From: an uncultured delta proteobacterium
Lineage (GTDB): Bacteria; Myxococcota; Myxococcia; Myxococcales; Myxococcaceae
Assembly: GCA_963771175.1 (NCBI GenBank)
Contig: CAVYSY010000042.1
Coordinates: forward strand, 1-24,038
Direction of reading: 5' to 3'
DNA: 24,038 bases
A model generated the notes under the pieces. That model was not told where the DNA came from, did no database searches, and worked only from the letters and a program-made list of their open reading frames with translations. Shown here in pieces: positions 2,419 to 22,830 of the stretch. The translations under genes were made by a program, and so were the position numbers. Position 1 is the first letter of the stretch, and every line of letters begins with the position of its first letter.

Positions 2419-3174
2419 TCAAGGGGCTGCGCGCCCGCCAATCTCCGGGAAGCGCTCATAGGCTCGTTTGAGCGCGTCCAGGTGAGCGGGGTTGTCCAAG
2501 TCGAGCGGCGCGTCGGTGAGCTGAACAACCCAACCGCCCGTCGCGGTACGCCGTGAGCGCGACAGCAGCTCCGCATCGCGGGCCGGGTCCGGAAAGCCGA
2601 TGGCTTCTGCGGCAGCGGCGGACCAGAAGTTGAGCCACCCGAGGTAATAGGGAATCTCTGGCGAGCGGATGTGCTCGAAGAGCTTCAGGGCGGGCAACCC
2701 CCGGCGTGGGGACGGCGGCCCTTCAAGCGTGGGTGCCGTCTGATACGCGATGTCCCCCGCAGCGTCGTCTGGCGTTGCCTCCCCCCAGAACGCACGCGCC
2801 CCCTCCGCTACGCCCTCAAGCACAGCCGCCGCTGCCGCGATCACGGGCTCGTCCAGTGGCAGTTTTGCATGCACTTCAAACTGGTCCTGACCGCCTGGGC
2901 TGAAGAGTCCCGATTTTCCCATTCCCCAAACCGTCACGGGGTAACTCTCGTCCCCGTTGCACACCAGAGGGAATCCCCCGTCCTCAATGCTTTCTACGAG
3001 CCACGCATCGCGCTGCGGCAACGCGGCAAGCCGTCGCCTCTCGGTAACTCTCCACTCCAGGCGCAAGCCGGGGAGCGCCCTCTCCATTCCATGGACGCTA
3101 TCGAGCGCGCGGCGGTCGTTGCCCACGAGCGCAGGCGCGTAGACGATGATTCCGAGTCTTTTCCGCTTGATCAT
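2419..3174 (-). CDS. DUF5953-like putative immunity protein (copy 1)
   Basis: Start ATG overlaps the upstream stop (ATGA, 3171-3174). Conserved motifs IP..LGWLN(F/Y)WS, GFPDPARDA.LL and GGWVV.LTDAPLDLDNPAH. Paralog at 9876-10634. Confidence 0.8.
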   Translation of the reverse strand: MIKRKRLGIIVYAPALVGNDRRALDSVHGMERALPGLRLEWRVTERRRLAALPQRDAWLVESIEDGGFPLVCNGDESYPVTVWGMGKSGLFSPGGQDQFEVHAKLPLDEPVIAAAAAVLEGVAEGARAFWGEATPDDAAGDIAYQTAPTLEGPPSPRRGLPALKLFEHIRSPEIPYYLGWLNFWSAAAAEAIGFPDPARDAELLSRSRRTATGGWVVQLTDAPLDLDNPAHLDALKRAYERFPEIGGRAAP

Positions 3175-4094
3175 CGTTTGCACCCCGTGACGACGACATT
3201 GAGGCGCCGGTCTTCTCGCAGCAGCGCGTCTTTGTGCGCTTGGGTGCTCACCCCAACGACATAACCATATCCACATGCCGCCGCAGCTTTTCGCTGCTTC
3301 TCTATTTGAATCATTTCCTTCTTAATTTCCTTGTCTTGAACAAAGTCAGGGTATTCGTCAAATCGATGGGTCTTGACTTCCCACAGCACACGCACGCCGA
3401 CTTGCAGCGCATCGAAGCTCACGCCGCCCACGAGCACATCCATTCCGGGATAACGGTTGGGCGGAAACTGATCGGCGCACCTGTTATGCGGGTCATCCTC
3501 GCCCGCGTGCGGTTCCGGTATGGGCTCGCACCTGCGACGGCGCTCTCGCTCCGAGGTCTCGATGGGCCCCAGAGGGGGGAAGTCCGGCCCTTTGGGCTCC
3601 GGCTTGGGCCTTTTTTCCGGCGAGGGCTTCGGCGGGGCGGGCGCTGTTTCAGGCACGGGCCGCGTTTCAGGCACGGGCCTTACCTCGGGGTGGCCCATAT
3701 CCAGCGCATACGCATCCAGGGCCTCTTTGATGGCGAATCCCACCACCACCACGCCCGCGACGATCACCGCTCCCACGACGATCTCCGGTGCCGCCAGCAC
3801 GCAGACCCCGAGCCCCACTGCCGCGCCCGCGGACGCGACAGAGCATCTTCCGGTGAGATCGTGAAACTCGACCCGGTCGTGGTCGAGAGCATGAAAGCAC
3901 CGCTCCGCCAGCTCGGGCCAGGGCTGGGAAGCCTCGCGGACGGCGCACTGCCCCCCGTCCGTCCAGGGCAGCGCCGCCGCTCGCTGGAGGTTGGCGAGCC
4001 TCGGGTCTCGGGCCGCTGGCTCCCTTGGGCTTGGCGCTGACGTAGCGCAGGCCGAGACAAAGAGCAGAAGCGCGATGCAAGCGCGAAAACGCAC
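3171..4094 (-). CDS. DUF6310-like lipoprotein, putative polymorphic toxin with C-terminal REase-fold nuclease (copy 1)
   Basis: AAAGGA 7 nt before GTG 4094. Signal peptide MRFRACIALLLFVSAC with lipobox, internal hydrophobic helix, Pro-rich linker, then C-terminal VSFDAL...LWEVKT (D...ExK). Confidence 0.8.
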   Translation of the reverse strand: MRFRACIALLLFVSACATSAPSPREPAARDPRLANLQRAAALPWTDGGQCAVREASQPWPELAERCFHALDHDRVEFHDLTGRCSVASAGAAVGLGVCVLAAPEIVVGAVIVAGVVVVGFAIKEALDAYALDMGHPEVRPVPETRPVPETAPAPPKPSPEKRPKPEPKGPDFPPLGPIETSERERRRRCEPIPEPHAGEDDPHNRCADQFPPNRYPGMDVLVGGVSFDALQVGVRVLWEVKTHRFDEYPDFVQDKEIKKEMIQIEKQRKAAAACGYGYVVGVSTQAHKDALLREDRRLNVVVTGCKR

Positions 4095-4294
4095 GGTCAC
4101 GTCCTTTCATCAAGCGAGGGGGCAGGCTCAAGGCGGGCCAGTTGGGGAGTATGCCAGCACGCTCCGACAGCGACGAATGAGCACGCGAGGGGGAGCGGTA
4201 GGAGGCCGCCCATGTTGCGTCTATGTCGCGTGAGCCCGCGGAATGGGGGGGACGGGGCGGGACTACAGGGGACGCGGCGGGATAGCAGGGCCAG

Positions 4295-4364
4295 GTGTCA
4301 GACGACTCGTAGGGGGCGAGGTGTCGGGACGAGTCCTTTGACACGTTCTCCGACACGTTCTCCG
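4295..4364. repeat. GACAC-family repeat, copy R1 (inverted doublet plus 12-bp tandem)
   Basis: GTGTCAGACGACTCGT (4295-4310) and ACGAGTCCTTTGACAC (4329-4344) are inverted at 14/16. GACACGTTCTCC occurs twice in tandem (4340-4363). Confidence 0.75.
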
Positions 4365-4381
4365 CTACACTCGGAGTCCCC

Positions 4382-5485
4382 ATGGACAACCTCGCCCACG
4401 CGCTTGTCGGGGCCACGTTGGCGGAGACGGGCCTCAAGCGGTGGACGCCGCTGGCCACGGCCACGCTCGTGCTGGGTGCCAACCTCCCGGACGTGGATGG
4501 TTTCATCACCTTCGCGGGCATGGACACCGGGCTGCTGTTCCGGCGCGGCTGGACGCACGGTGTACTGGCCCTGGTCGTGCTCCCGTGGCTGCTGGCCGGC
4601 GCCATGCTGCTGTGGGACCGGCTCGTGCGGCGGCGGAGACACCCGGAGGCACCGCCCGCGCGCCTCGGGCCGCTGGTGGCGCTCGCCTACCTGTCCGTGC
4701 TCACGCACCCGGTGCTCGACTGGCTCAACACCTACGGCGTGCGCCTGCTCATGCCCTTCGAGGGCACCTGGTTCTACGGCGACGCGCTCTTCATCATCGA
4801 CCCCTGGCTGTGGTTGCTGATGGCCGCCGCCGTCGTGCTGGCGCGCACGCACTCCCGCCGCGGTGTCACCTTCTGGGCCGTCCTGGGGCTGGCGACCTCG
4901 GGGCTGGTGCTCGTGCCGGAGCTGGCGCCGCCGGTGGCGAAGGTGGCCTGGGGCGTGGGCGTGGCCCTCATCCTCGGGCTGCGGCTGGCCCCGGGCGTGC
5001 CGGTGCGACACGTCGAGCGCGTGGCGGGCCTCTGCGTCGCGGTGCTCCTCGTCTACATCGGCGCGATGCTCGTCGGCACACATGTGGCCGAGCGGCAGGC
5101 GGCCGAGTGGCTGCGGGCCCAGGGTCTCCCCGTGGAGCGTGTCATCGCGGGGCCGTTGCCCGCGCGGCCCTTCGCTCGGGACGTCATCGCGCTCACGCCC
5201 GAGCGCTACGTCTTCGCGGAGGTGGACTGGCTCGCCGACGAGCGCCTGCGCTTCAGTGATTCGCCGCTGCCGCGCGGGGCGCCCGGGCCCATCGTCGAGG
5301 CCGCGCTCGCCGCGCCCCAGGTGCGAGGCTTCCGCAACTGGTTGCGCTTCCCCTCCTGGCGGGTGCACCGCATGGACGAGGGGTGGCGCGTGGAGCTCCT
5401 GGACGTGCGCTACTCGCGGGCTCGTGACACGGGGATTGGCATCGCCACCGTCACGCTGGACCGAGAGCTGCGCCCCTTGGAGTAG
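4382..5485 (+). CDS. Membrane-bound metal-dependent hydrolase (YdjM/DUF457-like)
   Basis: MDNLAH...ANLPDVD...RRGWTH...HPVLDWLNTYG motifs and several hydrophobic helices. Confidence 0.88.
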   Translation: MDNLAHALVGATLAETGLKRWTPLATATLVLGANLPDVDGFITFAGMDTGLLFRRGWTHGVLALVVLPWLLAGAMLLWDRLVRRRRHPEAPPARLGPLVALAYLSVLTHPVLDWLNTYGVRLLMPFEGTWFYGDALFIIDPWLWLLMAAAVVLARTHSRRGVTFWAVLGLATSGLVLVPELAPPVAKVAWGVGVALILGLRLAPGVPVRHVERVAGLCVAVLLVYIGAMLVGTHVAERQAAEWLRAQGLPVERVIAGPLPARPFARDVIALTPERYVFAEVDWLADERLRFSDSPLPRGAPGPIVEAALAAPQVRGFRNWLRFPSWRVHRMDEGWRVELLDVRYSRARDTGIGIATVTLDRELRPLE

Positions 5486-5551
5486 GAGCGGCGCTCGAGC
5501 GGCCACCATCCGACCCCAGGCACGGCCGCCGCCCGTGGTGAACATAATAGT

Positions 5552-8341
5552 ATGTCGTTGTCTCAGTTGAAGGAATGGCTGGAGCTCGTGGCTGCGGTGC
5601 TGGCCCTGCCCGCCGCCTTGTTCGGCCTCTATCTGCTGGCGCGCTACTGGCGCGGGAAGGTGCGCAAGGAGGCGGGCGAGGGCCTCGCGCGCGAAAAGGA
5701 AATCGCATACCTGGCGGCACTGGATAGGCACATGCAGGAGCTCAATCGTCCGCTTCGCTACCAGGAGGGCGAATTCACGCCGGGCGAAGGGCGCCTGGTG
5801 GAGCAGGAGCAGGTCGCCATGCGGTACGTGTTCCGACGCTCCACCTCGGCCGATGAAGCGGGCCTGACGCCGGGAGAGATCCTCGACAGCGACCGCACGA
5901 AGGCGGTGCACAATGTCGTCGACCTGCTGCGCAAGAGCCACCACCCGGTGGTGCTGCTGGGGGATCCGGGCAGCGGCAAGAGCGTGACGTTGCGCCAACT
6001 CGCGCAGACGTTGGCGCGCGAGCCGGGTTTCACCAGGGCGCTGCCGGTCCTTCCGGTGTACCTGCACCTGGGCAGATATCGGCAGGTGGGCAAGGGCGGC
6101 CGGCCAGTCGACTTCCTCGCCTTCATCAAGGAAGAGCTGAAGAACTTCGTGCCGCTGGGAGAGTATGTCCTCGCGGCACTCGACGATGCACTGGCCCAGG
6201 GCCGGGTCTTCCTCCTGCTCGACGCCATGGACGAAATGCCGACGAGGCAGTTCTCCGAGCGCGTCGACGCCATCAAGAACTTCCTCATCGAGTATGGCGC
6301 CCGAAACCGCGTCATCATCGCGTGCCGTCGGCGCGAGTACGCCGGTGGGCTGCCGCACAGCGAGTTGATCATCGAACCGTTCAGCCCCGAGCGCATCCGG
6401 CAATATCTGGAACGCCACTGGGCGCTGTATGCGGACAGGCTCGGAGCCCTGGTGGAGGAGCCGCAGGTACGGAAGCGGTACTTCGACATCGCGAGGCCGG
6501 GGCATCCGCTGTTCGCCTTCGCGACCAACCCGTTCTCCCTGAAGCTGATCGCCAACCACTTCTTCGCCAACAAGGGCACGGTGCCGCGGGCCCATTCGGA
6601 GCTGTTCGAGAGCTACGTCTCGCGTCGCCTGGCCGTCGCGGCGGCGCGGCAGCAGCTTCCACAGGCCAGGCAGGAGCTGATTCTTCGCCACTGGGAGGCG
6701 TTGGCCTTCGCGGTGTTGCGCGGCAGCCTTGGCACCTATCTCAAGAGGCCCCCGGACGGCACCGTCGCGGTGGCCGGCGCGCGCGAACAGGAGCTGGAGG
6801 CCGCCATCAGCGCGGGCGTGCAGAGCGGACTGCTGCGTGAAGAGCGTGACGGTGCGGTGCGCTTCGAGCACCATCGGCTTCTCGAGTATCTCGCCGCGAA
6901 GTTCTGGGATGGAGACGACGAGCACCTCACCATCTCGGCGGAGCATCTGCGCAATCCGTGGTGGCGCGAAACGCTGGTGATGCGGGCTGGAATCACGAAG
7001 CGTCCGGATGCACTGGTCAGGGGGGTCGTGCTCGCGATCGACCGCGGCTACACCTCCGCTCTGGGCTTGCGCTTCAGCGGCGAAGGAGCACCGGCGTCTG
7101 ACTCGCCAGACGACTCCGTGGAAATGCGCCTGAACGGCATCGTCGCCATCGAAGTCGCCCTGGCGTGCGCGCGACAACGCGTGACGGAGCTGGCGACGGA
7201 CACCTTCGACGGATGGCTGCGACCGCTGGCCGACGCGGTGGCGCAGCAAGGAACGCTGATTGAACAGGTGCGGCTCGCGCGATCGTTGCAGGGGTTTCCT
7301 TTGTGGTTCTCGCACCATGCACTGGCAATGCTGGCGCAGGTCGACTCCGATTGGCTGGCAAGAGAGGTGTTCTCGGCGATCGAGCGCAAGGACTATCGAG
7401 ACCCGCACTTCGGCGACATCCTCATTCATTTCGTGAAGTCGACACGCAGCACGCTGATCGTTTCCAGGAGGCTGTACGCCGCTCGCACCCTCTCGCTCGT
7501 GGCCTGCCTCAAGGCGGCTCCGCGTGAGGCGCGCGGCGCGCTGCTGTGGGCCATGGCCCGCGAGGTCGCTTTCCTCGGCGGTATCTGCGTCATCAGCGGG
7601 ATGGTTGGGTTGTACATCTTCAGCATGGGCAGCGAGCAGCACACGCTGGTCCTCGTGGGACTCGCGCTCGTGTTGTTGGTGTTCTCACTCTTGTTCTCGG
7701 GAATCCCGCTGACGCTGTTCCTGGTGATGGTGTCCGCGGGGCTCTTCTGGATGCTGCCGCCGCGCACCGCGGGGAGATTGTCATTGCTCGTGCTCGGCTA
7801 CCACTGGGGCATTGGAACCGAGTTCCAGCGCTTCAAATGGATCTCCAATCCGGTTCGCCGCTATTTCGGCTCGGTGCTGGCGGTGCCACGCTGGTTTCGC
7901 TGCGTTCTCTGGTTCATGGGCTTCAACAGCCTCTACATCTTCCTCTGGGCGCAACTGCGGCCTGGACCGGTCCCATGGTGGCAGAGCCTACCGGCGGCGG
8001 TGGTCAGCGGCCTCGTCACGGAATCGCTGCTCACCTGGGTGCAGAGGCGCCGAACGCTTGCGCTCGTTCACGGTGAGGAGCCTGCCGCCGATGAACAGGC
8101 CCGGCGCGCCCATGTCGACGCCTGCCTGGCGCGACTGCATCGACCGGTGCTGCCTCATGAGGGGCAGCGGATCCTCGAACATGTCGTCAAGCTTCCGTTC
8201 GCGGAAGCCGAGCTCATCGGCAAGCTCAAGGAACTCGCCGCGAGCGAGGAGTTCACTGTCCCGCGCGATCAGATTCTCCAGGCCATCGATCGCATCGACC
8301 TGCGACGTCGCCAGAAGACACTCGAACAGGCCACCGCGTAG
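5552..8341 (+). CDS. NACHT/STAND NTPase with an N-terminal TM helix and a C-terminal multi-TM region
   Basis: Walker A VLLGDPGSGKS, Walker B VFLLLDAMDEM, sensor IIACRRREY, NPF and F.H..L.EYLAA motifs. Hydrophobic segments at aa ~10-31 and ~660-830. Confidence 0.85.
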   Translation: MSLSQLKEWLELVAAVLALPAALFGLYLLARYWRGKVRKEAGEGLAREKEIAYLAALDRHMQELNRPLRYQEGEFTPGEGRLVEQEQVAMRYVFRRSTSADEAGLTPGEILDSDRTKAVHNVVDLLRKSHHPVVLLGDPGSGKSVTLRQLAQTLAREPGFTRALPVLPVYLHLGRYRQVGKGGRPVDFLAFIKEELKNFVPLGEYVLAALDDALAQGRVFLLLDAMDEMPTRQFSERVDAIKNFLIEYGARNRVIIACRRREYAGGLPHSELIIEPFSPERIRQYLERHWALYADRLGALVEEPQVRKRYFDIARPGHPLFAFATNPFSLKLIANHFFANKGTVPRAHSELFESYVSRRLAVAAARQQLPQARQELILRHWEALAFAVLRGSLGTYLKRPPDGTVAVAGAREQELEAAISAGVQSGLLREERDGAVRFEHHRLLEYLAAKFWDGDDEHLTISAEHLRNPWWRETLVMRAGITKRPDALVRGVVLAIDRGYTSALGLRFSGEGAPASDSPDDSVEMRLNGIVAIEVALACARQRVTELATDTFDGWLRPLADAVAQQGTLIEQVRLARSLQGFPLWFSHHALAMLAQVDSDWLAREVFSAIERKDYRDPHFGDILIHFVKSTRSTLIVSRRLYAARTLSLVACLKAAPREARGALLWAMAREVAFLGGICVISGMVGLYIFSMGSEQHTLVLVGLALVLLVFSLLFSGIPLTLFLVMVSAGLFWMLPPRTAGRLSLLVLGYHWGIGTEFQRFKWISNPVRRYFGSVLAVPRWFRCVLWFMGFNSLYIFLWAQLRPGPVPWWQSLPAAVVSGLVTESLLTWVQRRRTLALVHGEEPAADEQARRAHVDACLARLHRPVLPHEGQRILEHVVKLPFAEAELIGKLKELAASEEFTVPRDQILQAIDRIDLRRRQKTLEQATA

Positions 8342-8518
8342 CCGGCCAAAGGTGTCAACCGCCACGCTGGAGCGCGAGGAGCGCCCCCCTGTCACCCTCC
8401 TGCCCTGGCGAGGTGCCATGCACCTCCTCCACTCCGACGCGCGCGCCCCTGGACAGACTTCCCTTCGCGGGTGGGCCGTCACGACATTTCCCCGGAGCCC
8501 CCCAGGAGGAGTGAAGCC

Positions 8519-9709
8519 ATGGCCAGCAATCGCGGTGTCGTCTACCTCGGTCCCGGGAAGGTGGAGGTGCGGAACATCGACTACCCGAAGATGGTCAATC
8601 CGAAGGGAAAGCCCATCGAGCACGGCGTCATCCTCAAGGTCGTCTCCACCAACATCTGCGGTTCGGACCAGCACATGGTGCGTGGCCGGACCACCGCTCC
8701 GCCGGGACTCGTGCTCGGTCACGAAATCACCGGAGAGGTCATCGAGAAGGGCAAGGACGTCGAGTACCTGGAACTGGGCGACCTCGTCACCGTGCCCTTC
8801 AACGTGGCCTGCGGACGCTGCCGCACGTGCCGGGAGCAGCAGACGGGAGTGTGCCTCAACGTCAACGCGTCACGTCCCGGTGGCGCCTATGGCTATGTGG
8901 ACATGGGCGGCTGGGTGGGTGGGCAGGCCCAGTACGTCATGGTCCCCTACGCCGACTTCAACCTCATCCGCTTCCCCGACAAGGCTCGGGCGCTCGAGAA
9001 GATAAAGGACCTGACCATGCTGTCGGACATCCTGCCGACCGGCTTCCACGGCGCGGTCTGCGCGGGAGTCGGGGTGGGGTCCTCCGTGTACGTCGCGGGC
9101 GCGGGGCCCGTCGGGCTCGCCGCCGCGGCCTCGGCCCACCTGCTCGGTGCCGCGGTGGTGATGATCGGCGACATCAACCCGGAGCGTTTGCGGCACGCGA
9201 AGTCCGTGGGGTTCGAGCCCATCGATCTCACGAAGAGCGACAAGCTGGAGGAGTTGATCGCCGCGGTCGTCGGCGTGCCCGAGGTGGATGCCTCCATCGA
9301 CGCGGTCGGTTTCGAGGCGCGCGGCCACGGCGCCCAGCACGTGACGGAGGCGCCCGCCACGGTGCTCAACTCGCTCATGGCCATCACCCGGGCCGGTGGC
9401 GCCATCGGTATCCCGGGGCTCTACGTCACGGAGGACCCGGGCGCGAAGGACGAGGCCGCGAAGCAGGGCAACCTGCGCATGCGCTTCGGGCTCGGCTGGG
9501 CGAAGTCGCATCGGTTCTTCACCGGGCAGACGCCGGTGCTCCGCTACAACCGCCAGCTCATGCAGGCCATCCTCCACGACCGCCTGCCCATCGCGAAGAT
9601 CGTCAACGCCACTGTCATTCCGCTCGACGAGGCGGTGCGCGGCTACCACGAGTTCGATACGGGCGTGGCCCGGAAGTTCGTCATCGACCCCCACGGCATG
9701 CTGAAATGA
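8519..9709 (+). CDS. fdhA: Glutathione-independent formaldehyde dehydrogenase (zinc MDR family)
   Basis: AGGAGG RBS. MASNRGVVYLGPG start, TNICGSDQHMVRGRT, GHE, C-x2-C-x2-C-x7-C zinc site, LSDILPTG, GAGPVG and GLGWAKSH..TGQTPV. Confidence 0.93.
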   Translation: MASNRGVVYLGPGKVEVRNIDYPKMVNPKGKPIEHGVILKVVSTNICGSDQHMVRGRTTAPPGLVLGHEITGEVIEKGKDVEYLELGDLVTVPFNVACGRCRTCREQQTGVCLNVNASRPGGAYGYVDMGGWVGGQAQYVMVPYADFNLIRFPDKARALEKIKDLTMLSDILPTGFHGAVCAGVGVGSSVYVAGAGPVGLAAAASAHLLGAAVVMIGDINPERLRHAKSVGFEPIDLTKSDKLEELIAAVVGVPEVDASIDAVGFEARGHGAQHVTEAPATVLNSLMAITRAGGAIGIPGLYVTEDPGAKDEAAKQGNLRMRFGLGWAKSHRFFTGQTPVLRYNRQLMQAILHDRLPIAKIVNATVIPLDEAVRGYHEFDTGVARKFVIDPHGMLK

Positions 9710-9800
9710 GAGCCCTCTCCCCTCTCCTGGCCTTTCCCTACCGCACGGCACGTCAGCCCTGCTTGCTACGAGCTCCCGATCGGGCTCGCGTCCCAGTCTC

Positions 9801-9870
9801 GTGACAAGAGCATCGCGGTGGAGGAAGTGGCTTCTGCCCGTGGCGGCGCTGGGTCTGACCCTGCTCCCAC
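9801..9870 (+). pseudogene. Orphan signal-peptide-like fragment
   Basis: GTG-initiated MTRASRWRKWLLPVAALGLTLLP has a basic n-region and hydrophobic h-region and ends at the edge of toxin cassette 2. No clear RBS. Confidence 0.35.
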
Positions 9871-9875
9871 GAGCC

Positions 9876-10634
9876 TCAAGGGGTGGAGCGCCCGCCGATT
9901 TCCGGGAAGCGCTCGTAGGCCCGTTTCAGCGCGTCCAGGTGCGCGGGGTTGTCCAGGTCGAGCGGCGCATCGGTGAGCCTGACAACCCACCCGCCCGTCG
10001 CGGTGCGCCGCGCCCGTGAGAGCAAATCCGCGTCGCGGGCGGGGTCCGGAAAGCCGATGGCCCGTGCGGCAGCATCCGACCAGTAGTTCAGCCACCCCAA
10101 GCGATGCGGAATCTCGGGCGAGCGGATGTAATTGGGGAACCTGAGCGCTGGCAGCCCTCTCGGCGGGACCCCCGGCTTACGCGCCGGATCTCTCGTCTGC
10201 CGCGAAATCTCGACGGCTGCGTTGAACGGCGTCGCGTGCCCCCAGAACGCGCGTGCGCCCTCCGCGACGGCTTCCAGCACATCCGCTGCCGCAGTGATGC
10301 CGGCCGCATCGAGTAGCAGCGTTGCACGGACTTCAAAATGCGACGGGCTCCCTGCTGCAAGGCCATTCGGGTTTTCCGATCCGGCAAGAGTCACGAGGTG
10401 GTCATCGTTATCGTTGCAGAGGAACGGAAACCCTCCGTCCGTGCTGTTTGCCGCGACCCATTCATCGCGGTGAGGCAATGGAATAAGGTCTTCCTTTCCG
10501 GAAGTCGTCCATCCCAGACGCAAGCCCGGAAGCGCACGTTCCATCCCATGGATGATGGTGGGAGGTCGCGCATCGCCCCGCACGAGTGCTGGCGCATAAG
10601 CCATAATACGAACATCAGTCGGGTCGACCACCAT
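9876..10634 (-). CDS. DUF5953-like putative immunity protein (copy 2)
   Basis: ATG 10634 lies 1 nt after the toxin stop. The C-terminal part is nearly identical to 2419-3174 and the N-terminal part is divergent. Confidence 0.8.
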   Translation of the reverse strand: MVVDPTDVRIMAYAPALVRGDARPPTIIHGMERALPGLRLGWTTSGKEDLIPLPHRDEWVAANSTDGGFPFLCNDNDDHLVTLAGSENPNGLAAGSPSHFEVRATLLLDAAGITAAADVLEAVAEGARAFWGHATPFNAAVEISRQTRDPARKPGVPPRGLPALRFPNYIRSPEIPHRLGWLNYWSDAAARAIGFPDPARDADLLSRARRTATGGWVVRLTDAPLDLDNPAHLDALKRAYERFPEIGGRSTP

Positions 10635-10635
10635 G

Positions 10636-11536
10636 TCAGCACCAATCCATGACGACAACCTTAAGGGTCTGATCCACCAGCTCCAGTGCGGCCTTGTGCG
10701 CTTCGCTGTGAACGCCGAGGACAAATTCGTAACCACACTCTTCCGCAAGCCTGCGCTCTCGTTGTATCTCCGGCAGCTTCATTTCGATGAAGAATTGTTG
10801 AGATCGACGACTGTGCTTGTCAAAGTCATCCGTTTTGACGTCCCACAGCGTGCGCACGATGAGTTGCAGCCCGTCGTAATCCTTCCCATTGACGCGCACA
10901 TCCCAACCGGGAAAGCTGTTGAACGGAATTCTGTCGGCGCACTTGTTATGATCGTCGTTTCCGCCTCGGTGCGGCACCGGGATGGGCTTGCACTCCGGGC
11001 GGCGGTCTCGCTCCGTGACTTCGACTGGCCCCAGAGGAGGGAAATCCGGTCCTTTTGGCCCCGGCTTGGGCTTTTGTTTCGGCGAAGGCTCCTGTGGGGT
11101 GGGCTTCGTTTCAGGCGCGGGCTTCACTTCTGGCAGGGGGCGCGTTTCAGGCACGGGTCTTGCCTGGGGACGGCCCCTCTTCTCCGCGTAAGTATCCAAC
11201 GCTTCTTTGATGGCGAAGCCCACCACTACAACGCCCGCCACAATCACCGCTCCCACCACCAACTCCGGGGCCGCCAGGACGCAGACCCCGAGCCCCATTG
11301 CAGCGGCACCCGCAGAGGCAACAGCGCATCGTCCTGTGGGGTCGTGAAACTCGATCCGGTCATGGTCGAGGGCATGAAAGCACCGCTCCGCCAGCACGGG
11401 CCAGGGCTCGGAAGCCTCCTGAACGGCGCACCGCCCCCCGTCCGTCCAGGGCAGCGTCGCCGCTCGCTGGAGTTTGGCGATCCTCGGGTCTCGGGCCGCT
11501 GGCGCTCTTGGGCTGGGCGCTGACGTAGCGCAGGCC
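10636..11536 (-). pseudogene. DUF6310-like toxin (copy 2) lacking start codon and signal peptide
   Basis: Similar to copy 1 from ACATSAPSPR onward. Similarity stops at 11536, just 5' of the lipobox Ala-Cys. C-terminus has DYDGL...LWDVKT. Confidence 0.75.
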
Positions 11537-11559
11537 TGTGGAGGGCTCCCAGGGCGGTA

Positions 11560-11635
11560 GCGGTGCCAGCGGGAACGAGTCCTTTGACACCTTCCCGGAG
11601 ACACCTTCCCGGCCTCTTCCCGGCCCTGGCACCGC
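11560..11635. repeat. GACAC-family repeat, copy R2, inside a stem-loop
   Basis: ACGAGTCCTTTGACAC (11575-11590) is identical to 4329-4344. GACACCTTCCCGG occurs twice (11586-11598, 11600-11612). Outer 10-bp perfect IR GCGGTGCCAG/CTGGCACCGC. Confidence 0.75.
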
Positions 11636-11697
11636 GCTGGCGTGGGACTCCTCGCCAGGGCGCATGGTGGGCGCAGGGTGGAGCGGGTCCTCGGGAG

Positions 11698-11715
11698 CCT
11701 GTCTAGTAAGACAGG
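11698..11715. promoter_or_regulatory. Candidate operator palindrome upstream of the kinase
   Basis: CCTGTCT-AGTA-AGACAGG, 7-bp perfect arms, in a locally AT-richer intergenic patch. Confidence 0.3.
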
Positions 11716-11801
11716 AACTCCTCCACATCTTAGGGGGAGACCTCGCGAGCGCTCCATTGGGCCCCCCATCTCCAGCACCGCTCTCCCCCCAGCAGGCGCA
11801 G

Positions 11802-13547
11802 ATGCTCTCTTTCCTGCGCGTCTCGCTCCTGCTCGGGCCGCCGTTCACCGTCTTCTATGGGGTCAGCGCGCTCCTGCTCCGGCAGCTCGACCTGGCGCTC
11901 ATGGCAGGCGTCCTCTCCGTCGCCGGGTTGCTCACCCTGCTTGGGAGTTGGCTGGCACGGAAGGGGCGCCTGGAGGCCGCGGCATTGACCGCGGGCTACA
12001 CCGTGCTCGGGATGGCGGGCCTCTTCGTCCTCATCCTCCCGGGACTGTACGCCGCCGATCTCATCCTGTGCCTGCTGGGCGTCGTCTGCGTCCTCCCCCA
12101 CGTTCGCGGTTGGCCCCTGAAGCTCTATCTCTTCGTCACCGTGGCAGCCATGGTGCTGGTGGTGCTGGTCGCCACCCCGAGCCCCCGGCCCATCCCGCTC
12201 CCCAATGCGCTCCAGCACGGGCTGCTCCTCGCCAGCATCACCGTCCCGGGGAGCCTCATCTGTTTGTTGTTGTGGCAGTACAGCACCCAGCTGCGTCGGC
12301 AGCTCCAACACATCCAGTTCCTGAGCCATGCGGGTTCCCTGCTGGCCTCCTCGCTGGCGCTCGACACGACCCTCCAGAGCGTGGGCCAGCTCACCGTTCC
12401 CTGGTTCTCGGACTGGGGCCTGCTCGATCTGCTCGACGAGGCCGGAGAATGGCGGCTCGCGGCGCTCATTCACGCGGACCCCAGGGCCGAGGCAACCACG
12501 CGCGCACTGCTGGAACGGCAAGGCGGCGCCGGGGCCCCACCCGCCGGCTCCTCCGATGGGCTCGAGCCGTGCTCCCTCACCCTCTCCGGACAGGACTCCC
12601 TGCCCGGGATGGAGCCGCGCCGCGTCGCGCTGCTACGGGCGCTGGGGCCGGGCTCGCTGCTCCTGGTTCCGCTGGTGGCGCGAGGACGACACTCCGGAGT
12701 CCTCACCCTCGGCCGTACCTCCATGCGGCACCCCTTCACCGGGCAGGACGCGGTCCTCGCGCAGGAGCTGGCACGGCGTATCGCGGTCGCGGTGGACAAC
12801 GCCCGGCTCTTCGAGCAGGCCCAGGGGGCCATTCGCGCCCGCGATGAGTTCCTCGCGATTGCGTCGCATGAGCTGCGCACCCCGCTGACGCCGCTGCTGC
12901 TCAAGCTGCATACCCTGCGCCGGAGTGTCGGGGCGCTGCCCCTGAGCCAGGAGGCAACCACCTGGATGGAGCAGCAGTTCTCGGTCATCGAGCGGCAGGT
13001 CCACCGGCTGGTGCGGCTCCTCGAGGAGATGCTGGACATCTCGCGGATGGAAGGGGGCCGGCTGCGGTTGGAGCTGGAGCCGGTGGACCTGGCGGCGCTG
13101 GTGCGGGAGCTGGTGGCGCATGGCGAGGAGTCGGGAGCGGTGGCGCGCGGCAGGAGCGAGGTGCGGCTGACGTTGCCGGAGGAGGTGATCGGGCGGTGGG
13201 ATCGGCTGCGGCTGGTGCAGGTGATCACCCACCTGCTCTCCAACGCCTTCAAGTACGGCCAGAACCGGCCCATCGACGTGGAAGTCCGGCGGGAGGGCAC
13301 GCTGGCGATGCTGGTGGTGAGGGACCGGGGCATCGGCATCTCCCGGGAGAACCAGGAGCGGGTGTTCGGGCGGTTCGAGCGGGCGGTGTCCGTGCGGCAC
13401 TTTGGCGGGTTCGGCCAGGGGCTCTACATCGCACGGCAGGTGGTGGAGGCGATGGGCGGCACCATTCGTCTCGAGTCGAAGCCAGGGGAGGGCTCGACCT
13501 TCACGGTGCTGCTCCCGCTGGCTGGCCCGGCAACGTCTGCACCGTGA
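11802..13547 (+). CDS. Membrane sensor histidine kinase (TM-GAF-HisKA-HATPase); start uncertain
   Basis: Several TM helices, GAF-like LLLVPLVARG..GVLTL..F...D..LAQELARR, H-box FLAIASHELRTPL, NAFKYG, DRGIGI, GFGQGLYI and GEGSTF. The frame is open upstream to 11538. Confidence 0.9.
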   Translation: MLSFLRVSLLLGPPFTVFYGVSALLLRQLDLALMAGVLSVAGLLTLLGSWLARKGRLEAAALTAGYTVLGMAGLFVLILPGLYAADLILCLLGVVCVLPHVRGWPLKLYLFVTVAAMVLVVLVATPSPRPIPLPNALQHGLLLASITVPGSLICLLLWQYSTQLRRQLQHIQFLSHAGSLLASSLALDTTLQSVGQLTVPWFSDWGLLDLLDEAGEWRLAALIHADPRAEATTRALLERQGGAGAPPAGSSDGLEPCSLTLSGQDSLPGMEPRRVALLRALGPGSLLLVPLVARGRHSGVLTLGRTSMRHPFTGQDAVLAQELARRIAVAVDNARLFEQAQGAIRARDEFLAIASHELRTPLTPLLLKLHTLRRSVGALPLSQEATTWMEQQFSVIERQVHRLVRLLEEMLDISRMEGGRLRLELEPVDLAALVRELVAHGEESGAVARGRSEVRLTLPEEVIGRWDRLRLVQVITHLLSNAFKYGQNRPIDVEVRREGTLAMLVVRDRGIGISRENQERVFGRFERAVSVRHFGGFGQGLYIARQVVEAMGGTIRLESKPGEGSTFTVLLPLAGPATSAP

Positions 13548-13576
13548 GCCCGCGAGGAAGGTGTCACCCCGCCTGG

Positions 13577-14142
13577 CCCCGGAAAGGTGTCCCAGAAGGG
13601 TGTCAAAGAACACGAGCGATGCGACCGGGCACGACTCGCGGCGGGAAGGAGAACCTGGGGAAGCAGGCAGAAAAGTCCCCCTGTCTCCAGCGAGCCGCGG
13701 CTTCTCGGAATGCCGAGACGAAATCGCGATACCGCTCGCGCAACTCCCGCGGGGCCTGGCGCGTGGACGCATGTCCCTGCCACTCGGCGCACCGCTCCAC
13801 CAGCCCCTCCTTCACTCCATGGGCGAGCACGTAGCGCAGCCGGCCCACCAGCGCCGTGTCGTCCAGCACCGGCTCCGCCGAGTAGCGCCGCTCCCAGAAG
13901 CCCCGCGAGCGCTGCCCCCCGTGCCCACACCAGCAGATGGAAGTGGTTGGATGAGAAGGCGAAGGCATACAACCGCACCGTGCCGGCGCTCTGTTCCACT
14001 GCTCGCGCCAGTACACCTCCACCACGCAAACCCTCGGAAAGACTTGGAGACCGGTGGGTTCACCCGTCCACGCCGAGTCTTGTTCGTATTCGGGTTCAGC
14101 TTATCGAGTTCTTTGACACCATCCTCGGACACCATCCTCGGG
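13577..14142 (-). mobile_element. Degenerate HUH/Y1-transposase element bounded by GACAC-family inverted repeats (R3, R4)
   Basis: GGTGTCAAAGAACACGA (13599-13615) matches the reverse complement of 14104-14120 at 16/17. The match extends to about 31/39 over 13577-13615 versus 14104-14142. Confidence 0.7.
13603..14024 (-). pseudogene. HUH/Y1 (RAYT/TnpA-REP-like) transposase remnant
   Basis: One frame gives LYAFAFSSNHFHLLV (HUH) and another gives FWERRYSAEPV...LRYVLAHGVKEGLV..AEW (Y1 helix). There is no N-terminus and the frame changes near 13905. The stop TGA lies inside the repeat (CTTTGACACC). Confidence 0.8.
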
Positions 14143-14231: not shown

Positions 14232-14984
14232 ATGTTGGCCACGAAAGGACGTGGAACCAGGACGAAGAGCACCTTGGGGCTGGCGGGTTTTCTCCTGCTG
14301 CTCGTGGCGACCCTCAATGCCCAGGCGGAGCCGCCCTCCTCCACGCTCCCTGGCCGTAAACCAGACTCCAAGGAGCCCTGGGGCGCTTTTCTTGGCCGGG
14401 CCGCACATGAGGCCATTGGCAGAGCTTACAGCGTACAGCATCCCTCCAACGTCATCTTCCTCAACACCGTCAGTCTCGCCGACATTGTGAGGGAGGGGGA
14501 ACTGGGGGATCCCAAGCGACTTGCTGAGTTCGTGAGGCTCTGGCGCCCGGACATCACCGATACCCGCGCCCTCGTGCTCTTCGAGATCAAACCGGACGAT
14601 GAGGAGTCGCGCAGGGAAGGGAGAGACCAGGCGAGGCGCTATCTGGCGGCGCTCAATGATGCCGTCGAGCCTGACAAGAAGCTCGCGGGAGGCACCGGCT
14701 TCGAGGGGGCGCTATTCCTCGAATTCGAGAACGGGGGAGCACTCTGGCAGTTGTCCTGGCGCACGCCAGAGCCCGGAGTGACTCTGTACCGCTGGAGCTA
14801 CCGGCGCGAGAAGCCCAATGCTTCCTGGAAGGAGCGGGCGGCCCAGAAGGCAGAGACGTTGCCCAAGGAAGAAATAGAACAGCGCGGTGAGTTGGCGGAG
14901 CAGGCGCTCCGAGCCGCCTATGGAGGGGGCGAACGCCCCAAGAGCTTCCAGGGTCAGGTCTACCTGCCTGTGGACTGCCGCTGA
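14232..14984 (+). CDS. Secreted protein with PD-(D/E)XK nuclease-like motifs; putative toxin
   Basis: GGAGGA before ATG 14232. Signal-like LGLAGFLLLLVATLNAQA|EP, then AHEAIG...RPDITD...FEIKP...QARRY. Confidence 0.7.
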   Translation: MLATKGRGTRTKSTLGLAGFLLLLVATLNAQAEPPSSTLPGRKPDSKEPWGAFLGRAAHEAIGRAYSVQHPSNVIFLNTVSLADIVREGELGDPKRLAEFVRLWRPDITDTRALVLFEIKPDDEESRREGRDQARRYLAALNDAVEPDKKLAGGTGFEGALFLEFENGGALWQLSWRTPEPGVTLYRWSYRREKPNASWKERAAQKAETLPKEEIEQRGELAEQALRAAYGGGERPKSFQGQVYLPVDCR

Positions 14985-15071
14985 GCGAGCGGGATGCGTC
15001 TGCCGCCCTTGGAGCGAACGAAGTGCCTGGCGATGGAGGAGCACCTGGCCGCTGTGCTAGGGCAAAAGACC

Positions 15072-15875
15072 ATGACCCCGGAACAGTCCCCAGTGCTTGA
15101 GTTTCCAGCTTGGCTCTACGGCACAACCGCCGCCATCCTCCGCAAGGTGAGAGCCGAGGGCCACTGGTGGGCCCGGGAGTACCTCAAGACCGGTGCATTT
15201 CCCCGGCCCAGACAGATGCGCCAGGTTCCGCCCGGAGAGGTGCTGGTAATGCACTCGGGGGCCGATTTCGACTCGACCCACCCGCGCTGGCGGGTGCACA
15301 TGTTTCTCAGCGTCTTCACCAGCCTGGGCGAATGCGTCCAGGAGGAGGAGCGTCAACGCACGGCAGAAGCCTTCGAGTCCTTCTGCCTGAGCACCCCTTG
15401 GGGCGCCCTCTACCACGCCGTGTCTCCGCCCCCGCGGCGGAGCGCTGAGCGCATGGCGAACCGGCTCGCCTCTGTGCTCCGCTTCTGGGATGTGCTCCAG
15501 GGCCCTCGCTATGTGTACAGGTTGCCCGACACCCACCACACCATCGACGACCTCATGGAGTACATCTACCGCGAGACCCTGGAGGCATGGTGCCCCGAAG
15601 GCCCGGCCTCGGTCCGCGAGCACATGGCCCTGACGGTGGAGCGCATGGCTCGCGCTACCCGAGAGGATTGCATGGAGGCTGTGCTCCGGGTGATTCCTGT
15701 CTTGGTAGAGGTGGATACCGAATTCAAACACCCCGAGGTGCTCAGCGACCCGGACTTCCTGCGCGAGCGCCTCTCCGCGCTTCCCCTGGAGAGGTTCGAG
15801 GCTCTCTCCAGCGCCTACAAATACACCGTGACCGTGCAGTTGGCTGCCTCGGACAGGGAGTTGGGGCGGCATTAG
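15072..15875 (+). CDS. Hypothetical protein, candidate partner/immunity of 14232-14984 (alternative starts 14994, 15033)
   Basis: Intact co-oriented ORF directly downstream, with no signal peptide and no recognisable catalytic motif. Confidence 0.65.
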   Translation: MTPEQSPVLEFPAWLYGTTAAILRKVRAEGHWWAREYLKTGAFPRPRQMRQVPPGEVLVMHSGADFDSTHPRWRVHMFLSVFTSLGECVQEEERQRTAEAFESFCLSTPWGALYHAVSPPPRRSAERMANRLASVLRFWDVLQGPRYVYRLPDTHHTIDDLMEYIYRETLEAWCPEGPASVREHMALTVERMARATREDCMEAVLRVIPVLVEVDTEFKHPEVLSDPDFLRERLSALPLERFEALSSAYKYTVTVQLAASDRELGRH

Positions 15876-15891
15876 CCTTCGTAGGAGGGAG

Positions 15892-15944
15892 GCCGGGCCG
15901 GAGTGTGCCCCAAGCGAACTGCACGGCCTCTCCTCCGGCCCGGC
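15892..15944. repeat. 12-bp perfect inverted repeat (possible terminator or regulatory hairpin)
   Basis: GCCGGGCCGGAG (15892-15903) pairs with CTCCGGCCCGGC (15933-15944). No U-tract. Confidence 0.4.
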
Positions 15945-15967
15945 GGACATGGGATAACACTCACCCC

Positions 15968-17791
15968 ATGAACGCCCCCGCCCGAACCCGCTGCTCTCCG
16001 ACCGCGACGTCGACTTCCTGCTCTACGAGGTGCTCGACGCCGCGCGCTGTGCCCGCTGCCCGACCTTCGCCGACGCACTCGCGCGAGACCTTCGACCTCT
16101 TCCTCGACAGCGCGCGCCGCCTCGCGCGCGACGTGCTCTTCCCCACCTACCGGCCCATGGACGCCGAGCCGCCCGTGCTCCGCGACGGCCGCGTCCACGT
16201 CCACCCGGCTGATGCGCAAGCTGTACCCGCAGCTGGTCGAGCTCGGCCTGCTCACCGCCACGCGGCCCGTCGGAGGTGGGCGGCCAGCAGCTGCCCCTCA
16301 CGGTGGACTCGCTGGCCTCGGCCTACCTGATGGCCGGCAACCTGAGCGCCTACGGCTTCGTCGGGCCTCACCACCGGCGCCGCGCACCTCCTCGAGGCGT
16401 TCGGCAGCGCCTTCGCTCAAGAGCGAGTTCATGACGCGGATGTACGCCGGCGAGTGGACCGGCACGATGGCGCTCACCGAGCCGCAGGCGGGCAGCAGCC
16501 TCGCCGACGTGCGACCACGCGCGCACGCCCGCCGGAGCGACGGCACTACCGCATCAGCGGCTCGAAGATCTTCATCTCCGGCGGCGATCACGACTTCACC
16601 GAGAACATCGTGCACCTGACGCTCGCGCGCATCGACGGCGCGCCCGCGGGCAGTCAAGGGCATCTCGCTCTTCGCCGTGCCGACAGCGCGGCCCGAAGGC
16701 GGGCGCGCTCGTGGCCAACGACGTCCACGTCGCCGGGCGTCATCCACAAGATCGGCTGGCGCGGGCTGCCCAGCCTCGCGCTCAACTTCGGCGAGGACGG
16801 CGACTGCCACGGCTGGCTGGTCGGCGAGCCCAACCAGGGGCCTCGCGCTACATGTTCCAGATGATGAACGAGGCGCGCATCATGGTGGGCCTGAACGGCG
16901 TCGCCACGGCCTCGGTCGCCTACCACGAGTCGCTCGCGTACGCGCGGACGCGCCCGCAGGGCCGCCCGCCTGGCGCGAAGCGACCCGACGCGCCGCAGGT
17001 GCCCATCATCGAGCACGCCGACGTGCGGCGCATGCTGCTGCGGCAGAAGGCGATCGTGGAAGGCGGTCTGTCGCTGCTGGCGGCTGCACCGCGCGCTACG
17101 CGGACCTCGCCGCGCACGCGCCGGACGCGGAGGAGCGCCAGCGCGCGCCGCTGCTGCTCGACCTGCTCACGCCCATGGCGAAGACCTTCCCCGCCGAGAG
17201 GGGCTTCGAGGCCAACGCGCTCGCGGTGCAGGTGCACGGCGGCTACGGCTACTCGAGCGAGTACCTGCCCGAGGCGTGGCTGCGCGATCAGAAGCTCAAC
17301 ACGCATCCACGAGGGCACCACCGGCATCCAGGGGCTCGACCTGCTCGGGCGCAAGGTGGTGGCGGGCGGGCGGCGCCGCGCTGCGGGCCTTCTCGGAGGA
17401 GGTGGAGGCGCACGGTGGCGCGCGCGCGCAAGCGCGGGCGTGGAGGCCGCGTGGGGCGCGCCGCTGCACAAGGCGCTGGCCGAGGTGCCGGAACTCACGA
17501 TGGAGCTGGGCGCGCGCGGGCATGGAGGGCGACGTCGAGGGGATGCTGCGCCACAGCGCCGACTACCTGGAGCTGTTCTCGATGCTCGCGGTGGCGTGGC
17601 AGTGGCTGGTGCAGGCGGCCGCGGCGCGCGAGGGGCTCGCGCGCGGCGGCGAGGGCGGCGACTTCTACGAGGGCAAGCTGCGCGCCGCGCAGTACTGGAT
17701 TCACACCGAGCTGCCGCGGGTGCGGACCTCGTGGCGCTGTGCCGCGGCGGGCGAGGACTCGTACGCCCGCATGCGGCCCGAGTGGTTCTGA
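15968..17791 (+). CDS. Acyl-CoA dehydrogenase (long type), multiple apparent frameshifts
   Basis: Fragments across frames: [89 protein letters not shown] and FYEGKL. Confidence 0.88.
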
Positions 17792-17792
17792 C

Positions 17793-18610
17793 ATGTCCGT
17801 CTCCTTCCACCTGTGCCAGCCCGGCCGCGGCGCCTCCTGTGGGGCCTGCTGCGGCCTCTACAACTTCCGCGACCACTCGCGCGCCACGCTCACCGAGCGC
17901 CTCGCCGAGCAGACCGCCACCTTCCGCCCGCTGCCCAAGCAACCCGAGGCGTACCAGCCGCGCGGCCCGGGCCCTGCTGGAGTCCCGCCACGCCACGCCT
18001 CCCCTCTTCCCCGCCGTGCGCGTCTGTCCGCTGCTCGGCTTCCTCGACGCGGAGCACACGCGCGTGGGGTGCCTCGGCCACCCGAAGGTGACGGGCGGAG
18101 AGGACCTGCGCGACTGCGGCGTCTACCGCGCCGACATCTGCGAGACCTTCACCTGCCCCTCCTTCACCTGGCTCTCGGACGCCCAGGCGCGGCTCGTCCA
18201 GGCGGCGTGCGCGGACTGGTACCTGTACGGGCTCGTCATCACCAACGTGGAGTTCGTCCGCGGCTGCCTGCGCCTGCTCGAGTGGGAGCTCCGCGGGGCC
18301 CGTGGACCCGGAGGCCCTCGCCACCCAGCCCCGAGGCGCTCGAGGCCGTGCGCCAGCTCTTCTCCCTGAAGGAGACCGCGCCCGACCGGGGCACCCACGC
18401 CGCCGTCTTCGGCCGCTTCACCCCGGACACCGAGGGCGAGCCCGTCTCGCGCAACCTCGACTTACGCCGCGCTCGGAGCGCGCGCCGCCCCCGAGGACGA
18501 GGTGGTGCTGTGCCTCGGGTATGTCCCCTCCCCGCCTGGAAGAGCTCACGCGGGCCCGGGAGCTCGTCCGGACACACGTGCGGGCCGTGGCTCGCGCCCT
18601 GGGAGCCTGA
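17793..18610 (+). CDS. Cys-rich putative Zn/Fe-S cluster protein (YkgJ/CxxCC-like), frameshifted
   Basis: [24 protein letters not shown]...VCPLLGFL...VGCLGHP...DCGVY...ICETFTCPS, tightly packed between its neighbours. Confidence 0.6.
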
Positions 18611-18614
18611 CACC

Positions 18615-19628: not shown

Positions 19629-19721
19629 CGAGGCTCCACCACTGAACGGAGCTCCGGGGGGAGGCTTGTCACGCTGGCCCCGGCTCCCCACCTTCCCCCG
19701 GGAGAGTGTGGGGAGGGTGGG

Positions 19722-20385: not shown

Positions 20386-20400
20386 AGGGGCCCCGCAGGC

Positions 20401-20436
20401 CCGACGGGCGGCCCCCCGAGGAGGACCGCCCGCCGG
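20401..20436. terminator. GC-rich hairpin between convergent genes
   Basis: CCGACGGGCGGCCCCCC pairs with GGAGGACCGCCCGCCGG at 14/17. No clear U-tract. Confidence 0.45.
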
Positions 20437-20460
20437 CTGAACCCATGTTGTCCGTCGAAA

Positions 20461-22688: not shown

Positions 22689-22830
22689 TTCAATACCCCT
22701 CTGAAGAAGAGGCGTATTTCTTGACATACCAACAACCCGTCAATCAAGGGGCTATGATGGATTTCAGGAATTTTTCTGTTTTACGGACTGTAAACGTATC
22801 CTCGCGGCCACTTGCCTCCTCCTTCCGGGA

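Follow-up and report, generated by a model that had tools for sequence, protein, structure and literature searches.

GACAC repeats in a myxobacterial genome are the ends of a Y1/HUH transposase element and its miniature derivative, and probable join points for unrelated DNA

Results

The locus and its repeats

The stretch of DNA analysed here, hereafter the window, comprises 24,038 nucleotides of contig CAVYSY010000042.1 from an uncultured member of the Myxococcaceae (assembly GCA_963771175.1). It carries three toxin genes with known or putative immunity partners, a histidine kinase gene, a few further accessory genes and the remnant of a Y1/HUH transposase gene, among which four copies (R1 to R4) of a repeat with a GACAC core are dispersed (Table 1). 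A sequence-only reading had regarded these repeats as sites with which a Y1 enzyme builds or reshuffles toxin, defence and signalling cassettes in an integron-like way. Our analysis identifies R3 and R4 as the terminal inverted repeats (TIRs) of a Y1/HUH transposase element of 1.1 kb, whose copy in the window has suffered three deletions. R1 is a 50-bp miniature two-ended derivative and R2 a right half-site. Moreover, we consider it probable that each such end is nicked about 8 nt outside GACAC and joined, on its own, to a loosely chosen nick. The conclusions on the element and its join rule are built on genome-wide data and other genomes, not on the order of genes in the window; the source genome assembly (G000) comprises 9.8 Mb in 58 contigs, is 82% complete and contains frameshifts and haplotig-like overlaps.

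All four repeats lie at the positions and on the strands first reported, and R1 and R2 have indeed an exact 16-mer in common (ACGAGTCCTTTGACAC at 4329-4344 and 11575-11590). A second GACAC, which was said to follow 12-14 bp later, is found at a spacing of 12, 14, 13 and 13 nt in R1 to R4, but it is not a second conserved box; it is a site-specific tandem duplication of the end, for which we use the term stutter. In the case of R1 the motif had been recognized correctly, yet only the right half of a two-armed element was seen and the left arm, which is the end facing toxin 1, was missed. This left arm joins the DNA upstream of toxin 1 about 10-11 nt past GACAC, and the right arm joins the leader (5′ region) of ydjM 6-7 nt past the last GACAC. 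R3 and R4 bound the transposase remnant, as proposed, in the form of a 39-nt inverted pair (79%). Within the window alone, matches to a 9-mer with one mismatch were not above chance (5 matches against a mean of 2.69, with 14 of 100 shuffles reaching 5).

Table 1. Coordinates of the repeats and genes in the window
Feature	Position	Strand	Remarks
R1, complete miniature two-ended element	4284..4363	+	core of 50 bp (4295-4344) between outer arms of some 7-11 nt; right-end tandem duplication 4352-4363
R2, right half-site of the miniature element	11572..11623	+	two nested end duplications; inner side fused to toxin-2 upstream DNA; paralog homology stops at 11573
R3, right TIR of the transposase element	13552..13616	-	overlaps the TGA stop; two further end units, the outermost (third, degenerate, ~13552-13566) just beyond the kinase stop codon (13547)
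R4, left TIR of the transposase element	14104..14141	+	one end duplication
Y1/HUH transposase remnant (310-aa gene)	13606..14025	-	three internal deletions of ~157, 65 and 340 bp, start codon lost with the first; nonfunctional
Toxin 1 (DUF6310, lipoprotein-type N-terminus) and immunity (DUF5953)	2419..4100	-	joined to R1 left arm, perhaps by the assembly or as another haplotype
Cargo right of R1	4382..9709	+	YdjM-family membrane protein 4382-5485; NACHT NTPase 5552-8341; zinc-dependent dehydrogenase 8519-9709
Toxin 2 (DUF6310) and immunity (DUF5953)	9876..11535	-	start and signal peptide deleted (~170 bp lost, including the start codon)
GAF-HisKA-HATPase histidine kinase	11802..13547	+	between R2 and R3, both pointing into the kinase
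Toxin 3 and putative immunity gene	14232..15875	+	without Pfam match

The transposase element and its enzyme

Intact genes for the 310-aa transposase were found in the source genome at C44:35772-36704 and C44:175830. The proposed link of the motif to a Y1 enzyme was supported, the motif being the end sequence of that enzyme, with outward-facing sites being present on both sides of the gene in 19 of 23 full-length loci of the genus; the exceptions were one locus short of room upstream and three without a downstream site. The upstream site typically lies 134-158 bp from the gene, and the downstream one overlaps the TGA stop codon. None of the 17 full-length transposase loci compared had a flank in common with another, copies within one genome are 85-92% identical and the median ratio of nonsynonymous to synonymous substitution rates (dN/dS) is 0.14.

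The transposase has the HUH motif NHFH and an invariant tyrosine, Y122, within a signature Y-[VI]-[LIF]-x-H-G that is seen in most of 36 aligned sequences; N-P occurs only in two distant members. Its matches to the profiles Y1_Tnp and NF047646 are weak and below the cut-offs. The predicted structure (predicted local distance difference test score, pLDDT, 91) has its best match in E. coli TnpA-REP 4ER8 (Z 15.4, root-mean-square deviation 2.4, 155 aligned residues). No Pfam match to Bac_DnaA_C, HTH_23 or HTH_28 was obtained in the transposase at E<=1, the C-terminal part not having been folded or searched by itself. Close homologs, by name, are from Archangium, Cystobacter and Vitiosangium. A sister genus has 8-15 transposase matches per genome in five genomes, with about 10 full-length copies in G187. 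An enzyme of 52% identity occurs in another genus, and its variant ends stutter in the same way.

Variant end types with this stutter, GAGGTGTTTGACAC and GTACAAAGTGTCTGACAC, were also noted in G000 at C44:32544, 34566 and 34612, C54:108319-108370 and C44:173032-175625. The GAGGTGTTTGACAC ends resemble those of the 52%-identical enzyme; a close gene of that enzyme was not seen in G000.

Miniature elements and distribution of the sites

Half-sites were located with a 27-nt position weight matrix at a cut-off score of >=20, with the reversed genome as control. The source genome holds 189 of them, against none in the reversed genome, and 99 of the 189 lie on contigs C49 and C44; TTTGACAC alone occurs 145 times. 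The miniature element (82 copies listed) is 50 bp long and consists of two inverted arms with a conserved 3-nt mismatch between them, the right arm matching the transposase TIR over 17 nt. Of 17 further genomes of the genus, 14 contain it, whereas the same search detected it in none of 23 other genomes. As for the 16-mer end, two enzyme-carrying genera have it in multiple copies (9 of 9 and 6 of 7 genomes) and a third has it as a single copy (3 of 9 genomes); overall it was found in 19 of 121 genomes of the family. Sixty matches to the 16-mer were also obtained in viral contigs, which by a rough estimate are likely due to chance. No Rfam match at the gathering threshold was found in the window or in loci L002 and L003. 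The statement that the repeats are unlike the classical GTAG-type repetitive extragenic palindromes (REPs) was supported; the ends read GTGTC, and folding of the regions around R3 and R4 is not stronger than that of shuffled sequences (z +1.19 and +0.07).

Junctions at the element ends

The stutter is a general property of the ends. A second GACAC within 20 nt was seen in 58 of 196 sites (background 1.5%), with a spacer of 7-10 nt in 54 of them and a following 7-mer that equals the site's own in 44, compared to 3% for random site pairs. Longer nested end units likewise restart mostly 7-10 nt after a GACAC, and a related strain carries an extra 12-nt end copy at two places. The outer 7-10 nt beyond the core travel with the element.

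What lies beyond was followed in traceable flanks, defined as outward flanks with a site-free homolog in G000 or in the fetched loci. A first set held 354 distinct outward flanks, and a separate set of 59 loci (78 fetched, 19 already used being dropped) gave 110 flanks. Junctions were anchored differently in the two sets, the cases are non-independent, and the elements and genomes are kin to one another, a kinship that the p-values ignore. In the first set, 120 flanks were traceable, and 45 of them have their homology begin 6-11 nt beyond the last GACAC, the neighbouring 6-nt bins holding 12, 7, 6 and 2; in the separate set it begins 6-11 nt past GACAC in 13 of 35 (58 of 155 pooled). The first donor base is a G in 19 of 29 and 10 of 13 cases, against 0.44 in a simulated null (pooled p ~8e-4). 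No target duplication was detected, direct repeats in 123 flank pairs being equal to those in shuffled pairs. The same G rule was tried on the deletions in the window (transposase remnant and toxin 2) and set aside as uninformative, because at 69% GC and with microhomology almost any junction fits one strand.

Where both flanks of a two-ended element could be traced, the donors on the two sides were unrelated in 8 of 9 elements. A called gene is cut by 18 of 57 junctions. The 400 bp that lie upstream in the donor reappear beyond the element at just 3 of the 57, as short matches that look to be element sequence. Donors lie within 15 kb in 9 of 53 cases, among them fragments that are 98-99.7% identical; for example, a 99.7%-identical gene fragment 4 kb away is fused at offset 8. 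Synteny breaks were expected to fall on the motif, and rearrangement breakpoints do map to element ends.

Separately, pieces similar to the 3′ regions of IS91-family transposases (G001:C1:1514685-1516250, 1524710-1525016 and 1543861-1544595; also L166) have a common sharp end, recur inside arrays and are often donors at element junctions.

Arrays and their cargo

Many elements stand in arrays that reach up to 80 kb. Contig C49 has 14 complete miniature elements, 12 in the same direction and with 1-7 genes between them, and includes a full-length but frameshifted transposase element. In a near-complete (closed) genome, G001, 15 left-arm loci follow one direction over 78 kb and 8 do so over 15 kb. 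Over all loci, neighbouring elements are co-oriented in 37 of 47 cases. A rule of orientation by replication strand was considered and rejected, both orientations being present in both halves of G001 (by inspection only, with origin and terminus unmapped). Elements of G001 differ by a median of 1 base within an array and of 10 between arrays, and differences so much smaller within arrays suggest local copying of a founder element.

The cargo is mostly made of ordinary enzymes, lipoproteins and signalling genes. A scan of 50 proteins returned methyltransferases, flavin adenine dinucleotide (FAD) oxidases, ApbE, kinases, PP2C, core proteins of extracellular contractile injection systems (eCIS), HipA, Imm26, beta-lactamase-fold proteins and many unknowns. 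Toxin modules are an enriched cargo and not a target. The supposed specificity for toxin-immunity genes fails, as a site lies within 500 bp of only 6 of 23 toxin modules in G000, 3 of these 6 being in the window, and 17 have none. The predicted enrichment next to toxin genes does hold (6 of 23 modules against 168 of 8337 called genes, and still 3 of 20 without the window, p 0.007), but it concerns a minority of modules. As for a defence cassette, PADLOC matched 0 of 10 proteins, and a weak NACHT similarity is all that is left. Toxin 1 shows a lipoprotein-like N-terminus, and toxins 1 and 2 the DUF6310/DUF5953 pairing; lipoprotein toxins of the SitA type are described, in the part of the source available, as having a family-specific escort domain and TraAB-dependent delivery (PMC8546572). 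The restriction-endonuclease-like (nuclease-like) features of toxin 3 are a lead only.

Other features of the arrays deserve mention. A multicopy gene of about 257 aa, without Pfam match, recurs beside elements (L002:7456-8229, L004:11544-11987, L001:10678-11448, L005:8316-9128); it has a sharp upstream homology boundary across the genus and is possibly a mobile unit of its own. Two species have in common a 3.9-kb segment with one end at a site (G001:C1:1504549-1508448 and G000 C41:4289-8185); its identity of 96% exceeds the 82-94% of most other shared segments and may reflect a recent transfer. A three-gene block of kinase, PP2C and vWA-like genes, presumably akin to a TerY-type triad, lies between two end clusters at L003:10909-14462, and its homology to four relatives halts at C49 34593, at the outer arm of an element.

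The window as an assembly

The window itself appears to be an assembly patchwork of three loci, and so the grouping of three toxins and four repeats may partly be a product of assembly. Its start is the exact point at which contig C32 lacks an aldo-keto reductase gene that relatives have. The end of contig C28 is identical over 86 bases to window positions 4294-4379, and by synteny with G011 it is C28 that naturally belongs to the left of ydjM. Contig C21 is repeated, at 88%, by positions 15012-24038; the mismatches number 211, 203 and 370 by codon position and there are many indels. The two window ends are megabases apart in 4 near-complete relatives. A 5.5-kb contig from public run X2 covers 4294-9724, starting at the left edge of R1; among the public-run contigs examined, none bridges the outer joins of the window, which may be assembly joins between strains or real rearrangements.

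Genes at 15900-24038 are fragmented by frameshifts and those of the C21 copy are not, a likely outcome of low-coverage long-read errors together with strain divergence. At the alternative acyl-CoA dehydrogenase locus (G000 C21:224174-225134) the toxin-3 immunity gene has an almost complete transposase gene joined straight into its 5′ part. Upstream of the acyl-CoA dehydrogenase lies a gap that is a hotspot of insertion (L041:5578-5619, L042-L045), with different cargo in G011, which has a miniature element, and in G004, G006 and G015, which have no site; in G001 it is empty. An IS630-like element (DDE_3 and helix-turn-helix (HTH), in two frames) with 36-nt inverted repeats occupies positions 1081-2294 and has a 99% identical copy on C30.

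Discussion

A mechanism suggested by the footprints

Since unrelated DNA is fused to the ends about 8 bases beyond their core, it is likely that the enzyme cuts and rejoins at them. In the mechanism that we propose, the enzyme would bind each end and nick one strand about 8 nt beyond the GACAC core; the end would then be joined to another, loosely chosen nick, so that every end would be an independent join point. By HUH chemistry the 5′ end of the element would be held on the tyrosine and passed to a 3′-OH. TnpA-REP enzymes are described as cutting between C and T or between C and A, at a distance from the binding site and with strand exchange, and gene capture has been proposed for them (PMC8266576, PMC3333891, as far as the available parts go). 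On the inward-reading strand the nick proposed here would similarly lie 3′ of a C; a first captured base G on the outward strand corresponds to a C-ended 3′-OH inward and would therefore fit such cuts, although sequence alone would not discriminate which strand is cut. A partner nick inside the same end would give stutter duplications, one a few kb away would give duplications or deletions, and one on distant or incoming single-stranded DNA would lead to gene capture. Arrays of one direction would arise through local re-copying of one founder, and under selection whole genes, including toxin-immunity pairs, would be retained. Perhaps, then, this amounts to gene collection without an integrase, in which a Y1/HUH enzyme and a reusable asymmetric adaptor of 50 bp, joined at about 8 nt to foreign single-stranded DNA and re-copied locally, build the strain-specific same-direction arrays of up to 80 kb in Archangium and Cystobacter; we put this wider proposal forward tentatively, with somewhat less than even confidence.

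Several points speak against this mechanism. Cleavage and joining by the enzyme are predicted from genomic footprints. A donor could be traced for only 120 of 354 and 35 of 110 flanks, and of these 75 and 22, respectively, start outside the 6-11 nt bin. The G bias is modest and comes from two sets that were anchored differently; exact junction bases are noisy because the donors are mostly paralogs or from other species at 80-99% identity, and the p-values are too optimistic because elements and genomes are related. The element at L166 sits in a once-contiguous locus from which about 150 bp are lost, a result that insertion plus deletion would give as well. Canonical miniature elements fold moderately (z -2.3 to -2.8) and R1 does not (z -1.0 and -1.25); a search for compensatory changes in the stem of the miniature element found none, and with both in mind hairpin recognition is not established. 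Large arrays are mainly those of G000 and G001, six other near-complete genomes having 2-12 left arms, and GACAC-type ends were found in only 2 of 29 more distant homolog loci.

Alternative explanations

The case of L166 is what would be expected if a plain element with TIRs, accompanied by MITE- or REP-like miniature copies, simply entered islands that varied already, the arrays being decorated hotspots, and if the junctions came from insertion, adjacent deletion and recombination between 50-bp repeats. Accessory genes swap neighbours anyway, and therefore unrelated flanks need no capture; dimers and clusters of TIRs have already been described in the accessible part of PMC3733652; and C28 and the window have R1 in common from its first base with different DNA upstream, as a crossover inside the repeat would give. 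Nonetheless, plain insertion leaves unexplained the local duplications fused at an end (the 9 of 53 donors within 15 kb), the nested stutter and the G bias, as well as the 18 in-gene junctions behind which the remainder of the gene was not found. We regard it as a serious but unlikely account of the whole. That the motif is a transcription-factor or promoter site of toxin operons is very improbable. The 5′ regions of the three window toxins are near a site and toxin modules are enriched for sites, yet 17 of 23 modules are without one, and the site overlaps the transposase stop, brackets the gene, sits inside broken genes and stutters; the TIR arrangement refutes a regulatory site as its primary nature.

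The integron-style shuffling first proposed would require the miniature to be an att-type site, with cassettes of element plus gene that leave as circles and enter again at a different element. The co-oriented arrays, whose elements stand 1-7 genes apart, and the conserved 3-nt asymmetry of the arms are in its favor, and so is strain X1, in which one C49 cargo gene faces another neighbour on the far side of an element-like sequence. The shared match of that gene, however, begins at L003 6514, about 15 nt farther from the end than in G000, and many junctions cut genes. Homologs of the cargo stand at unlinked places in relatives and lack the site in 11 of 11 such loci, the cargo has a mixed orientation (27 toward and 15 away at left arms, 22 and 20 at right arms), and duplicated segments inside arrays have at most one boundary on an outer element end. 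This explanation is hence improbable and, in our view, largely refuted.

Comparison with known systems

The arrangement of the gene and its TIRs is that of a TIRtron-like element, a known but unstudied kind. In TIRtrons (also TIRYT) a Y1/HUH gene is flanked by TIRs and has no REPs, and TIR copies are dispersed as singles, dimers and clusters, as is the case here (Di Nocera et al. 2013, PMC3733652, from the part available); they have been tentatively equated with subclass 2.1 of TnpA-Y1 (Quentin et al. 2018, PMC6006769, likewise). Read inward, the end GGTGTCA(A/G) departs by one to two bases from GGGGWSAS, a consensus of some TIRs only (PMC3733652); GGTGTCAG and GGTGTCAA differ from it at one and two positions. 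Unlike TIRtrons, the element described here has Y-x-L-x-H-G in place of Y-x-x-x-N-P, which is the class 2/subclass 2.1 signature according to the available part of PMC6006769, and it is multicopy and mobile. In Pfam, at E<=1, it gave no match to the HTH families (Bac_DnaA_C, HTH_23 or HTH_28) that the same part of PMC6006769 lists for the C-terminus of subclass 2.1.2. A 50-bp asymmetric miniature, a fixed join distance, stutter and co-oriented arrays are not described for TIRtrons in the accessible portion of PMC3733652.

REPtrons, with their REPs, bacterial interspersed mosaic elements (BIMEs) and REPINs, have the closest fold (4ER8) and non-autonomous palindromic partners, and the available parts of PMC3333891 and PMC8266576 offer, in their C-cutting, cutting at a distance and strand exchange, a precedent for the chemistry suggested above; sequestration of genes has been proposed for BIMEs (PMC3333891, PMC8266576, PMC5581495, in part). 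They differ in that no GTAG foot is found here and the gene-flanking ends are not hairpins. REP-associated tyrosine transposases (RAYTs) are typically single-copy and not self-copying, as far as the REP literature at hand indicates (including PMC5581495), whereas the present gene is multicopy and changes position. Close to the present situation are also the TnpA-REP genes of prochlorosin loci, where RAYT group 1/subclass 2.1-type genes and fragments lie amid diversifying gene clusters; there, however, no inverted repeats were detected and the causal claim was withdrawn by the authors (bioRxiv 10.1101/2020.03.09.984088), while here ends and junctions are defined.

The element is like a miniature inverted-repeat transposable element (MITE) in being short, non-coding and bounded by the TIRs of an autonomous partner, and unlike it in having no target-site duplication. 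IS200/IS605 elements, with a short TnpA, Y-x-x-x-Q, subterminal hairpins and no TIRs, contrast with the 310-aa enzyme, Y-x-L-x-H-G and TIRs found here. Integrons and attC arrays rely on the tyrosine recombinase IntI, and their cassettes carry their own att site in uniform orientation. The present arrays resemble them in being long, co-oriented and composed of accessory genes, with an imperfect palindrome of conserved asymmetry between the genes; they depart from them in cargo without a site of its own, in mixed orientation and in arbitrary far boundaries. No match to IntI (TIGR02249) over the cut-off was found in the 82% complete source genome. IS91, ISCR and Helitron elements use an HUH enzyme, make no target duplication and have one fixed end joined to captured neighbouring DNA. 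The present element is like them in its HUH enzyme, in the lack of a target duplication and, probably, in one-ended joining to captured DNA; it differs in its Y1 RAYT-type fold and two similar inverted ends from the rolling-circle Rep/Y2 enzymes with dissimilar ori and ter. Altogether, the element would seem to work like one-ended HUH capture and to look like an integron array, while agreeing with neither integrons, REPtrons nor IS200/IS605. The join rule and the arrays were not described in the literature searched, which left most subscription journals outside; supplements of PMC3733652 and PMC6006769 may list myxobacterial members.

The role of RAYT-like enzymes in their hosts is named as an open question in the part of PMC5581495 available. 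The family described here offers an answer that is directly testable: its ends are defined, the position and the base of the nick are predicted, and there are an intact enzyme of 310 aa and genomic footprints of repeated cutting and joining. If our proposal is true, it would represent a compact end-joining enzyme with almost no target requirement and, next to integrons and rolling-circle capture, a third way in which gene arrays arise. It would also account for strain-specific gene islands in the large genomes of myxobacteria, including some of the toxin loci for kin discrimination.

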